A stretch of DNA of 64,000 bases. Origin: Candidatus Thorarchaeota archaeon (GTDB taxonomy: Archaea; Asgardarchaeota; Thorarchaeia; Thorarchaeales; Thorarchaeaceae). Under the pieces are notes generated by a model. That model had not been told where the DNA came from. It saw only the letters and a list, made by a program, of their open reading frames with translations, and did no database searches. Location of the stretch: assembly GCA_048882045.1 (NCBI GenBank), contig JBHLRZ010000012.1, forward strand, positions 10,012-74,011, written 5' to 3'. Numbering within the stretch: the stretch's first letter is position 1; every line of letters starts with the position of its first letter. The position numbers were made by a program, and so were the translations under genes. Below are positions 18,239 through 22,484 of the stretch, one piece after another.

Positions 18239-19504
18239 ATGCCGAAGTTGACATTTCTAGGATCTTGCAGAGAGATTGGTAAATCCGGATTTCTTGTTGA
18301 ACAAAAGGATGAGAGTGTCCTGGTGGATTATGGTGTCAAATTCACTGATCCACCAACTTTCCCTGACATGGTGCCCACGGACAGCTTACAGGGAATTGGA
18401 CTCACACACGCTCATCTAGACCATTCGGGTGGTATTCCCAGTGTACTGTCTCATACTGAGGCATCCCTATTCTGTACACCTGCAACTCGTGACCTGAGTG
18501 TTCTTCTGCTTCGTGATATGTTCAAAATTTCCAAAGGACCACTTCCCTTTAATCGGAAGGATATCGCACTTGTCAAAAGACAATGTCAAGCCACACCCTA
18601 TGAACAAACAATACCACTTGGTCATAACTTCGAGATGACACTGTTCAACGCTGGACATATTCCAGGAAGCTCCATGGTGTCAGTCAGAGTTGACGGGAAG
18701 CGGATTCTCTTCACCGGCGACTTTAACGCAACAGAGTCTCAACTGAACCTAGGTGCTAGGAAGAACCTCCCCAAACACGATATCGTTGTCACCGAGAGTA
18801 CATACGCTCGTCGAGTCAATCCAAACCGGGAAGATATTGAGGTCGCCCTGATTGATACGGTGATTGAAACTCTTGAAAGGGGTGGGACTGTACTAATTCC
18901 CGCTTTTGCAGTAGGGCGAAGTCAGGAAATCATGTGCATCCTAGAACAGCATGAGATCCCTCGTAAGTATCCCATGTACATCGATGGCATGGCTCGGGCT
19001 GTCAATGAAATTCTTGTGAAACATCCCGAATACCTTCAAAGTCCCCAATCATTTCAGAGGGCTGTGGGGAGGACTCATATCATCCACGACAACCGAGATC
19101 GCACAAAGGCCGTTCAGAAGGGAGGCATCATCATCTCTCCAGCGGGGATGCTGAAGGGTGGTGCATCACATCTTTATTTCAAAATGCTCCATGATGACCC
19201 AAAGAATGCTATTGTACTTGTAAGTTACCAGATTCCTGGTACTCCAGGGGCTGAGATGCTTGCCACGAAAAAGGTGGTAGTAGGAAATCGGGAATTTGAT
19301 GTCACAGCAGACATACGTCAGCATCATCTGTCATCTCATTCAGACTCCAAGGGTATGCTAGACATGCTCACTAGGATTCCCGGGGACCCTGAATTCTATG
19401 TTATCCATGGAGAACCAGAATCATGCGACGCTCTTGCTGAAAAGCTGGAAAAACGGAAACGTGTGGCACATGTGCCTGAGATAAACGAGAGTGTCAAAAT
19501 CTAG
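18239..19504 (+). CDS. MBL-fold beta-CASP ribonuclease (aCPSF2-like, no KH domains)
   Basis: FLGSCREIGKS, THAHLDHSG, AGHIPGS, TGD, ESTY, PAFAVGRSQE, SSHSD, HGE. Confidence 0.9.
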   Translation: MPKLTFLGSCREIGKSGFLVEQKDESVLVDYGVKFTDPPTFPDMVPTDSLQGIGLTHAHLDHSGGIPSVLSHTEASLFCTPATRDLSVLLLRDMFKISKGPLPFNRKDIALVKRQCQATPYEQTIPLGHNFEMTLFNAGHIPGSSMVSVRVDGKRILFTGDFNATESQLNLGARKNLPKHDIVVTESTYARRVNPNREDIEVALIDTVIETLERGGTVLIPAFAVGRSQEIMCILEQHEIPRKYPMYIDGMARAVNEILVKHPEYLQSPQSFQRAVGRTHIIHDNRDRTKAVQKGGIIISPAGMLKGGASHLYFKMLHDDPKNAIVLVSYQIPGTPGAEMLATKKVVVGNREFDVTADIRQHHLSSHSDSKGMLDMLTRIPGDPEFYVIHGEPESCDALAEKLEKRKRVAHVPEINESVKI

Positions 19505-19716
19505 GCTAAGGCTTCTCCACCTCTTGCCTCTACAACTTGACACTTGACCTGCTGGATGATTTCCTCGGCCTTTTGGGGCTCAACAACCATTGTGTAGAGG
19601 TATTTCTTTGTGCGGAGTTTGAGCTTTACTTGGTCAGTACCTCTCTTGACCCTGCATTCCTCTGCATCCTCTGACATCTCGAGGAACTTATCGACATCAT
19701 AGATTTGTTTTGGCAT
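19501..19716 (-). CDS. rpl38e: 50S ribosomal protein L38e
   Basis: From ATG 19716: MPKQI.DV.KFL......CRVKR...VKLKLRTKKYLYT. Confidence 0.9.
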   Translation of the reverse strand: MPKQIYDVDKFLEMSEDAEECRVKRGTDQVKLKLRTKKYLYTMVVEPQKAEEIIQQVKCQVVEARGGEALA

Positions 19717-19743
19717 TGTTAAGCACCATTGTTTTCTGAGATT

Positions 19744-19766
19744 TGGTGGGCTGGACGAGATTTGAA
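19744..19766 (-). repeat. Isolated tRNA 3'-end copy (T-loop to CCA), inverted relative to tRNA-Val
   Basis: TTCAAATCTCGTCCAGCCCACCA vs tRNA-Val 20109-20131 TTCAAATCTCGTCCGGCCCACCA (22/23 identical). Confidence 0.85.
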
Positions 19767-19960
19767 ATGGAATCCAACCTGAATGTCCACCTGCTGATGG
19801 CACGGCTTATGATGTTGTTATAACTCTAACGCTATGAATTCATGTCTTTCTCGCAGTGATTTGACACGCAATATCCATCGAGTGCATTTGTGAATTTTAC
19901 TAAATTGCGTGACGAAAATTCGATTGCTGCATTAAAGGTCAACAAAACTCAACGTCATTC

Positions 19961-19966
19961 TTATAA
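19961..19966 (+). promoter_or_regulatory. TATA box of tRNA-Val
   Basis: TTATAA about 30 nt upstream of the tRNA 5' end. Confidence 0.6.
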
Positions 19967-19994
19967 CCGATAGACCCCCTCAAGTTCAATGCAT

Positions 19995-20131
19995 GGGCCG
20001 GTGGTCTAGCCCGGTTATGATTTGGTCAAGTTTCTTGACCATCTAATACACGTCGCCTTCACAAATAGAGTTCCTTGGACCTCTATGGGATTCGGCGAAT
20101 ATCATGAGTTCAAATCTCGTCCGGCCCACCA
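19995..20131 (+). tRNA. trnV: tRNA-Val(CAC) with two introns (D-arm 23/24 at 20020-20049; canonical 37/38 at 20064-20092) and encoded CCA
   Basis: Acceptor GGGCCGG/CCGGCCC, A73, CCA; anticodon stem TCGCC/GGCGA with loop TT-CAC-A|C; T arm ATGAG-TTCAAAT-CTCGT; both introns form hairpins with BHB-like junctions. Confidence 0.92.
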
Positions 20132-20229
20132 CTTCTTCAAGAAACATGAGTGGTTGTTCAAGAATATTCAAACCCAGAAAATCCAATGAGATATATAGGG
20201 TAATTGATAATATCCTTTCGGGGATTGTA

Positions 20230-22074
20230 TTGGTCAAAAGGGCTTTTTCAATAATACTCATAGCTATCCTTGTAATTCTTGCTTTCAATCAAGAGGCTGT
20301 ATCTCCAAGTAACACAGAAATCAATACCATACAGTGCTTTGAGATTACAGGATATACAAGTCATGCCACGATATCAATTCAGAATAACGATGACTTTGAC
20401 TCACAGGGATGGCCGGGCAATGGCACCTCAGATGATCCTTACATTATCTCCGGATTGAATATCACTTCTGATGATCGATGTATTGTCATAACAAACACAG
20501 ATGTCTATTATAGAATTGAGAACTGCTATATCTCATCTTTAGGGGCGAGGAATCAGCTGGGCATATATCTCCTCAATGCTCCATTCGGAACTGTAGATAA
20601 TTGTAAGATAAACTCACATGAAGAAGGAATTCGTGTCCAAGATTCTCATCACTGCAATGTTACTAACAATATCCTCTACTACAATCTCTACAATGGAATC
20701 TTCCTTTCAGTAGCGGACTATGCTATCGTGGAGAACAACACTTGCTACGATAACGACCAAGGGATTATCTTGAATAATTCGGTTCAAGGCGTTTTAAGAG
20801 ATAACAATGTAACATTGAATAGAAATGGCCTTACAATATATAGTTCAGAAAATTCGCACGCTTATAACAACTCAGCAGTTGCTAATTCAGCACGAGGGTT
20901 TTCTTTGGCTTTTTCTGAATTTTGTACATTACAAGCAAACAATGCAACAAGCAACATAGAAGATGGATTCTATGTCCGTATTTCTGATAGTTGCAATCTT
21001 ACAGACAATTATGCGAGAGATAATGACGAAGGATATGAATTACAAGAATCATCAAATATTCGGCTAGAATCAAATCAGGCGAAGGAAAATTCTGGAACAG
21101 GAATTGCCTTGGATGATTCTCACAACTGTCTGTTTTTCCAAAATAATTTGTCTCAAAATTCAGGAGCGGGAGTCCAACTTTTTGGCGGTAGTTCCAACAA
21201 TCATCTGGTTCTGAACAGGATTGAAGTAAATTCTCTAGGCAATGGTTTTGACTACGTTGGCACAAATCATTGGGATGATGGAGTAGAGTTTGGCAACTAC
21301 TGGGGTGATTACGACGGAAGTGGTGTGTACAATCTCGATGGAACCGGTAACGCAGACGATAACTATCCATTTTCTTGTGGAGTAGTCCCGTTTCTTAATC
21401 ATCCAAGAGATATCACAATTGAACTTGGTTCAGTAGGAAGCACAGTCACATGGAGCGCAAACGATGTCGACCAAGCCACTTACAAGATATTTCAAAATAC
21501 AACTCAGAAAATCTCCGAAGTGTGGGATGAGCCTTTCATTAGTGTAAGCCTGAATGGGTTGAACGTTTCCACCTACAATTTCACAATAGTAGTGACTGAT
21601 ACTCTAGATAATTCTGCACTTGATACAGTCTATGTTGAAGTTGTAGACACTACTTCTCCAGATGTTGATAGTCCTGTGGACATTGTATTTGAAGAAGGAA
21701 CACCCGAGCAATTCATCATTTGGACTCCCTTTGATTTCGATCCGGATTCATACACAATACACAGAGATGGTATGTTGCTCATATCAGAAAGTTGGAATGG
21801 CTCTCAAGTAACAGTTAACATCACAGGATTGTCTGTGGGATCCTACACCTATGTGTTGAATCTGTATGATGGTAGTGGAAATTCAGAAACAGACACTGTG
21901 ATTGTTTCAGTAATTGAGCCTGTCACGACGGCTACAACAATCACATCAACCACAACAACATCTCCACTCACAGCTCCCATTCCTCTCGATGCCACAACTT
22001 TGGTAGTAATTGCTTTGGGGATTGGAGTAGGGGTTATAGTCCTGGCTGTAGTTCTGATGAAGAAGAAATCATAG
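20230..22074 (+). CDS. Membrane-anchored surface protein with parallel beta-helix (NosD/CASH) and Ig-like domains
   Basis: Signal peptide from TTG 20230, GWPGNGT..DPYIISGL, repeated N..GI.L..S..N coils, GNYWGDY.G, Thr-rich linker, C-terminal TM then KKKS. Confidence 0.85.
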   Translation: MVKRAFSIILIAILVILAFNQEAVSPSNTEINTIQCFEITGYTSHATISIQNNDDFDSQGWPGNGTSDDPYIISGLNITSDDRCIVITNTDVYYRIENCYISSLGARNQLGIYLLNAPFGTVDNCKINSHEEGIRVQDSHHCNVTNNILYYNLYNGIFLSVADYAIVENNTCYDNDQGIILNNSVQGVLRDNNVTLNRNGLTIYSSENSHAYNNSAVANSARGFSLAFSEFCTLQANNATSNIEDGFYVRISDSCNLTDNYARDNDEGYELQESSNIRLESNQAKENSGTGIALDDSHNCLFFQNNLSQNSGAGVQLFGGSSNNHLVLNRIEVNSLGNGFDYVGTNHWDDGVEFGNYWGDYDGSGVYNLDGTGNADDNYPFSCGVVPFLNHPRDITIELGSVGSTVTWSANDVDQATYKIFQNTTQKISEVWDEPFISVSLNGLNVSTYNFTIVVTDTLDNSALDTVYVEVVDTTSPDVDSPVDIVFEEGTPEQFIIWTPFDFDPDSYTIHRDGMLLISESWNGSQVTVNITGLSVGSYTYVLNLYDGSGNSETDTVIVSVIEPVTTATTITSTTTTSPLTAPIPLDATTLVVIALGIGVGVIVLAVVLMKKKS

Positions 22075-22222: not shown

Positions 22223-22381
22223 TTACTTCTTTGAACGTCTCTTTGGTCTGAGGTCCTTGTTCTTGCATTTTCTGCACTTCTTTGCCTTAAGTGGATTAGT
22301 TGCTCCACAGTACCGGCAAATGGACTTGTACAGCAGATAGTGCTGTGCTAGCCTACGTTTTTCGATGTCAGCTACTGGCAT
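22223..22381 (-). CDS. rpl40e: 50S ribosomal protein L40e (missing from ORF track)
   Basis: Manual translation MPVADIEKRRLAQHYLLYKSICRYCGATNPLKAKKCRKCKNKDLRPKRRSKK; CxxC...CRKC zinc ribbon. Confidence 0.95.
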   Translation of the reverse strand: MPVADIEKRRLAQHYLLYKSICRYCGATNPLKAKKCRKCKNKDLRPKRRSKK

Positions 22382-22484
22382 CTTATGAACCTCATTTCAT
22401 TGATGGCGAACAGAGTGGACTCTAGTTAGCCCGCTCGGCTTTCCAGCCGGGTTGTGTTTTAAAAGCTTGTGCTCTTTCCACAAA

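Follow-up and report, generated by a model that had tools for sequence, protein, structure and literature searches.

The window is the whole stretch of 64,000 nt of contig JBHLRZ010000012.1 that was analysed, and all coordinates refer to it; genomes are designated G (G000 being the present genome) and loci L. The rpl38e gene, encoding the 71-aa ribosomal protein eL38 (Pfam PF01781, E 4e-14), lies on the minus strand at 19501..19716 with its ATG at 19716, and its closest homologues carry Ca. Thorarchaeota titles. Upstream on the same strand, a 27-nt spacer with a GGTG ribosome-binding-like motif (19717..19743) leads to a 23-nt orphan tRNA 3' end (T54 to CCA, 19744..19766), then to a 50-nt spacer of foreign type, hereafter type alpha (19767..19816), and to a BRE-TATA promoter motif facing rpl38e (PromA, 19817..19831), the TTATAA of which occupies 19823-19818. 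The elements named in the preliminary description are present where it placed them. On the plus strand, a second BRE-TATA promoter motif (PromB, 19953..19967) stands 27 nt 5' of the start of a whole tRNA-Val(CAC) gene (19995..20131), which is inverted relative to the operon and contains two introns (about 20021-20050 and 20064-20092), as read from the sequence and from intron-less orthologues. A gene for a beta-helix/NosD-type membrane-anchored protein, a putative cargo, follows on the plus strand at 20188..22074 (Pfam PF13229, PF05048), and beyond it rpl40e (22223..22381, minus strand) forms the left anchor of the ancestral rpl40e-tRNA-Val-rpl38e unit. The promoter and a leader of about 75 nt 5' of rpl40e (22382-22475, minus strand) are strongly conserved across the genus, and this leader is possibly a structured leader or a small RNA. 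An uncertain second tRNA 3' remnant, older and decayed, may be present on the minus strand at 19907..19923 (local alignment, p 0.03 uncorrected); relatives of the same layout have a clearer remnant at the matching position.

In the window, ARAGORN reports no tRNA and Rfam gives only chance-level matches; the tRNA-Val(CAC) gene (fold z -2.9) is missed by ARAGORN because of its two introns. The D-arm-side intron is common to the inverted tRNA genes of G012, G009, G001, G013 and L131 and to the resident gene of L136, and the anticodon intron is similar to those in G016, G018 and L134. With two introns of differing affinity, the gene looks mosaic. The 23-nt piece matches the 3' end of this gene at 22 of 23 bases, the single difference being a G-to-A change, and the strongest inverted repeat of the region joins the two places (arms 19739-19766 and 20109-20136, 28 nt, 89% complementary). 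When any tRNA 23-mer was searched with up to 3 mismatches, 64 matches were found in the genome against none in the reversed genome, so that the resemblance of the piece to a tRNA is not due to chance. Elsewhere in the genome, tRNA-Pro(CGG) and tRNA-Val(GAC) end in 3' sequences that are likewise identical to the piece at 22/23 positions, and its assignment to Val(CAC) therefore comes from synteny alone. The type alpha spacer had been described as a hairpin leader; a hairpin can be drawn in it, but with -6.3 kcal/mol and z -0.92 it is equalled by 37 of 200 shuffled sequences, and it is not conserved in relatives. The promoter-proximal 30 nt of this spacer are common to 7 other genomes and its scar-proximal 20 nt are variable. 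The spacer was also considered as a decayed tRNA 5' part and this was rejected, the alignment being not significant in 12 loci (p 0.08-0.8).

The locus was compared with 26 genomes of the genus having rpl38e, seven outgroup loci and metagenome loci. In half of the former (13/26), rpl40e, a whole tRNA-Val(CAC) and rpl38e stand in a row on one strand, and a whole tRNA is found directly 5' of rpl38e in 6 of the 7 outgroup loci, three of which have rpl40e ahead. The distance from CCA to ATG is 25-30 nt in the ancestral and the derived states alike. The spacer at 19717..19743 is in agreement with a native origin, since a spacer of equal length with the same motif lies 3' of the whole tRNA in ancestral genomes, and it starts like the spacers of L126 and L127, two metagenome loci that are the nearest relatives (support 99/98). 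Both of these are in the ancestral state and hold a whole tRNA where the fragment would be, which speaks for a scar in the present genome. Since a whole tRNA occupies the same position in relatives, the 23-nt piece is the host's own tRNA-Val(CAC) 3' end (T54-CCA), which stayed where it was. Across the derived genomes this remnant ranges from 23 down to 12 of 23 matches (12-13/23 in G009 and G042) with broken stems, against intact stems in the ancestral genes, and in other Thorarchaeota where the tRNA is separated from rpl38e it is decayed or absent. Taken together, synteny and decay make it very probable that the piece is an insertion scar. In L016 (G003), an orphan 3' piece located 100 nt 5' of rpl38e retains the T-loop intron of the host, as found in the whole genes of G008 and G010.

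The derived genomes display three layouts. In G005 the host tRNA is intact and is followed by the promoter and then by the remnant; in six genomes a self-promoted whole tRNA lies in direct orientation; and in G000, G012, G001, G013, G017, G009 and the metagenome loci L131, L134, L156 and L152 the self-promoted whole tRNA is inverted. The PromB motif also precedes the inverted tRNA in G012, G001, G013, G017, L131 and L156. Orphan 5' parts, which follow either rpl40e or a promoter from an earlier insertion, are found in G012, G017, G009, L131 and L156; these dead 5' parts of tRNA-Val end near positions 47-56, the one of G012 has a mutated anticodon, and G017 holds two nested pairs of tRNA halves. 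Since relatives keep the dead 5' part, the insert brings a spare tRNA rather than rebuilding the host gene, and the tRNA-Val(CAC) at 19995..20131 was probably such a spare, brought by an insertion. For another isoacceptor, at L121:1540-1760 (G014) and L124:2770-2970 (G003), a promoter-bearing tRNA-Val(GAC) 5' orphan was observed with a divergent whole tRNA-Val(GAC) directly behind it and then a convergent HNH-like gene.

The PromA motif is among the top 0.02% of the 16-mers of the genome when scored with a matrix built from the genome's own tRNA promoters. An exact search found the PromA 15-mer in 13 of 28 genus genomes, at this locus only. In the 13 derived genomes the motif lies about 100-125 nt 5' of rpl38e and is followed by a spacer and then by the tRNA 3' remnant, and it is nearly invariant while the remnant decays. 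A promoter that is almost invariant beside a freely decaying piece most likely serves rpl38e, and it is the promoter rather than the tRNA piece that selection appears to maintain. The TATA box that the preliminary description had attributed to the orphan piece is real, but its owner is most likely the ribosomal-protein gene and not a tRNA half. PromA would then make up for the read-through that the rpl40e promoter had provided. Other Thorarchaeota in which the tRNA is separated from rpl38e also have a promoter of the same family. Upstream of rpl38e in L147, L154-L163 and L191-L205, the separation comes with different spacers and a promoter of this family, which suggests, on comparison of the sequences, independent events.

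From these observations the following history is proposed. The rpl40e, tRNA-Val and rpl38e genes, observed co-oriented and closely spaced in the ancestral order, were presumably carried on one transcript. DNA was inserted in the T arm at about position 53/54, leaving, as synteny shows, T54-CCA on the leader of rpl38e. The insert ends in an outward BRE-TATA promoter, recognized by its motif and conservation, that would supply rpl38e after the loss of read-through. The whole tRNA-Val(CAC) with its own promoter probably arrived in the inserted DNA, here back to front, as seen in relatives keeping both broken halves, and the inverted repeat would be a by-product of this orientation. At the present locus the 5' orphan and a mobility gene were probably lost, with the beta-helix gene in their place; indeed, this gene (20188..22074) occupies the position of the HNH-like gene of relatives. 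Downstream of rpl40e in the present genome no 5' tRNA remnant is detectable (p 0.48), and beside the spare tRNA no HNH-like remnant is clearly detectable (best p 0.03-0.06 uncorrected, profile E 0.4), which is why the history of the locus is read from relatives. Nested remnants in these relatives indicate more than one insertion at this site. A tree with the derived genomes as a single clade is rejected (AU test p 8.5e-67) and two spacer types cross host lineages, both pointing to repeated insertion or horizontal spread; the tree fits repeated gain as well as gain followed by precise loss or conversion. The full account, i.e. a T-arm insertion scar, a spare tRNA and a replacement promoter at a repeatedly hit site, is held with nearly the same high confidence as the scar itself.

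The 23-nt piece is one of a class of orphan tails. Besides it, the present genome contains 22 orphan tRNA 3' ends, most of them arranged in rows behind the tRNAs from which they derive, and 16 of the 22 start within 1 nt of T54. Behind several tRNAs, rows of T54-CCA tail copies between short gene blocks were observed in G000 on C9 (63-68 kb), C12 (2-7 kb), C49, C54, C68, C19, C2 and C11. The G-to-A change of the piece is seen again in unrelated orphans, and G stands at this position in the nearest relatives. Methylated CCGG was considered as the cause of this change and rejected, CCGG being not depleted (0.98); GATC is under-represented in G000 (observed/expected 0.60).

The preliminary description had offered three other readings of the piece, which were weighed against the insertion scar. 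It is scarcely credible that the piece belongs, as a 3' fragment under its own promoter, to a trans-spliced split tRNA. The features by which such tRNAs were judged were taken from the literature (PMC3218864, PMC3293823), and one of them is present, namely an archaeal-type promoter (19817-19831) at a distance giving a leader of about 25 nt, as for the split tRNA-Asp of Aeropyrum (PMC3218864); it is explained equally as the promoter of rpl38e. The coexistence of 5' and 3' orphans in some relatives would also suit a split gene, and a GGGCTGG/CCAGCCC pair exists in a whole tRNA-Val(CAC) of a sister-family genome (L025:1375-1470, G025), between rpl40e and rpl38e, although this whole gene shows only the viability of the A variant. 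The GGGCTGG 5' part already reported as missing from the window is missing from the 93%-complete genome as well, where the three matching tRNA starts are those of whole genes and no other orphan Val 5' start was found. No Val isoacceptor is lacking, since the TAC, CAC and GAC genes are whole, as are three Pro tRNAs of similar ends. Perfect complements of the leader occur at about the chance level and none lies beside a tRNA, and in relatives with both orphans the pairing of trailer and leader is no better than in shuffled sequences (p 0.17-0.82). The mutated anticodon of the G012 orphan, the decay of the piece and the recurrence of its G-to-A change in unrelated orphans also argue against a split tRNA.

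A second proposal made the piece one arm of an inverted repeat bounding an invertible promoter segment of 340 bp. The arms are real, and inversion of the segment would restore a tRNA directed towards rpl38e, but contigs of depth 23 and depth 12 cross both arms unbroken, a third bridges the segment from arm to arm, and no strand-changing joint was found in contigs of three runs, which may be source samples and whose contigs drop rare variants. About ten related loci of this layout all have the same orientation, neither an invertase nor a tyrosine recombinase (PF00239, PF00589) was found in the genome, and the arm decays in relatives; we consider such a switch most improbable. It seems very unlikely that the rpl38e leader keeps the piece as a tRNA-like signal for processing or regulation. 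The CCA and 22 of 23 bases are kept in the present genome, and the 3' end of the ancestral tRNA would mark the site where the rpl38e message is freed. The 5' strands belonging to the T and acceptor stems are missing from the piece, which forms no T-arm fold; only 12-13 of 23 matches subsist in G009 and G042, and it is absent from several Thorarchaeota that keep the promoter, which leaves this signal without conservation. The attachment-site scar that the same description attributed to a tyrosine integrase stands in part: the whole tRNA of relatives and the decay argue for the scar, whereas no tyrosine integrase was found at the locus or in the genome.

To account for the insertion itself, two agents were compared. 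A gene encoding helix-turn-helix (HTH) repeats and two zinc-binding HNH-like domains lies, whole or as its tail, beside the spare tRNA in G012, G009, G001, G013, G003, L131, L134 and L156. It is found at 5/13 derived against 0/13 ancestral Val(CAC) loci, and members of its family end at most 250 bp from a tRNA 3' end in 22 of 28 cases in the genus, next to many tRNA types. A tRNA-Val(TAC) locus repeats the order of a 5' orphan, an HTH/HNH-like gene and an inverted spare. Two different whole tRNA-Val(GAC) genes are present in G000 (C49:723 and C91:1880), the one on C49 adjoining the sole HTH/HNH-like gene of this genome. The HNH assignment of the family is likely rather than firm on the basis of structural modelling and profiles. 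The predicted model of the protein has a pLDDT of 91, Foldseek rows obtained with it are mostly HNH nucleases at E above 0.1, the Atlas assigns HNH clusters at 0.94, and Pfam HNH matches 7 of 17 family members weakly (best E 0.01); VIA-align gave no match at Z of at least 5. In HHxDG-type HNH enzymes the second His is expected to be catalytic; the HNH-like domains have Arg or Lys at its position. No relative of the family was found in viral contigs with the query used. We give about an even chance to the agent being a putative HNH-like homing element travelling with the spare tRNA. The wider model, somewhat less well assured, is that of integrase-free selfish elements of Asgard archaea, in which the HTH-repeat/tandem HNH-like protein would cut the tRNA T arm and the element would supply a spare tRNA; where the tRNA lies in a ribosomal-protein operon, an outward promoter would rescue the downstream gene, and repeated invasion would lead to nested halves and to the entry of cargo.

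The same scar could have been made by the tyrosine integrase of a virus or plasmid, through a 7-nt T-loop crossover leaving an attR fragment, the element having decayed later and the HNH-like gene being a passenger or a second invader. Such crossovers are a known subsite of tRNA genes (PMC4383910), integrases with a short core are known that break a tRNA and bring a spare (PMC10865867), the textbook layout of an intact host tRNA, an insert and a 3' fragment is seen in G005, and 16 of the 22 other orphans have a sharp left edge at T54. A T-loop crossover and a fixed cut site would account for this edge equally well, so that it does not designate the enzyme. Neither PF00589 nor PF00239 has a match in the 93%-complete genome; PF00589 occurs in 8 of 28 genus genomes but near a tRNA at only 1 of 20 loci, and at none of the derived Val(CAC) loci examined. 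The filters of Islander would moreover reject the present locus for its opposite orientation, its lack of an integrase and its length under 2 kb. An integrase no longer present is the main alternative agent, although a rather unlikely one.

Several consequences could be drawn from these data. After the break, the spare whole tRNA and the new promoter would keep both the tRNA and rpl38e supplied. The piece is an ordinary insertion scar and is not to be listed among Asgard split tRNAs. It is of value as a marker, since it points to a tRNA gene that lies within a ribosomal-protein operon of Thorarchaeota and was broken repeatedly, a spare tRNA and a new rpl38e promoter arriving on every occasion. 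If the HNH-like protein is the agent, this would constitute an integrase-free route of gene gain at Asgard tRNA genes. Loci with both promoter-bearing halves show a starting material that could give rise to true split tRNAs.

Our literature searches, which covered the field in part, found no paper on these Thorarchaeota tRNA elements, and the locus can be set beside several known systems. Split tRNAs of Nanoarchaeum, Caldivirga, Aeropyrum and Staphylothermus (PMC3218864) resemble it in the separate promoter placed upstream of a tRNA 3' piece, but the partner half, the leader pairing over 13-14 bp, the BHB, the missing tRNA and the conservation are absent here. Displaced tDNA fragments mark integrated islands in the Islander account (PMC4383910; Williams 2002 as cited there). 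As in such islands, the tRNA gene is split in the T arm and a 3' fragment stands at one end of the insert. In contrast, the whole tRNA here lies within the insert, in inverted orientation and with a promoter of its own, a dead 5' part persists in relatives, the locus has no integrase, and a rebuilt tRNA in the same orientation is found only in some relatives, e.g. G005. At the tRNA-Thr(GGU) locus of the archaeon Caldiarchaeum subterraneum (PMC3293823), too, a 5' tRNA fragment and an insert occur with a whole copy of differing intron content, but in direct orientation and with a putative recombinase in the insert.

In the tRNA-dependent lysogeny described for Fionnbharth and similar mycobacteriophages (PMC10865867), a host tRNA is broken and not rebuilt, and the insert brings a spare of the same isotype with its own promoter; here, an unrebuilt host tRNA together with a self-promoted spare of the same isotype is found in G012, G017, G009, L131 and L156, and G000 retains the spare and the 3' piece only. 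Elements of the Fionnbharth type are prophages with a tyrosine integrase and a core of roughly 10 bp (PMC10865867), whereas the Thorarchaeota loci have no phage gene or integrase, their linked gene is of the HTH-repeat/HNH-like kind, and their second promoter faces a ribosomal-protein gene. SegB of phage T4 is a free-standing homing endonuclease of a tRNA cluster that recognises the T-psi-C motif (PMC2330249), and it resembles the present case in that a gene of nuclease type stands free and is linked to tRNA genes. SegB is nevertheless a phage-borne GIY-YIG enzyme of demonstrated activity that cuts near the 3' end, unlike the chromosomal HNH-like archaeal gene, a putative nuclease. By analogy, the element would resemble tRNA-dependent lysogeny and, if the HNH-like protein cuts, intronless homing of the SegB type, while belonging to neither. 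In its wider form it is close to known tRNA-targeting insertions, to which this locus adds a conserved outward rpl38e promoter and repeated hits on one operon.
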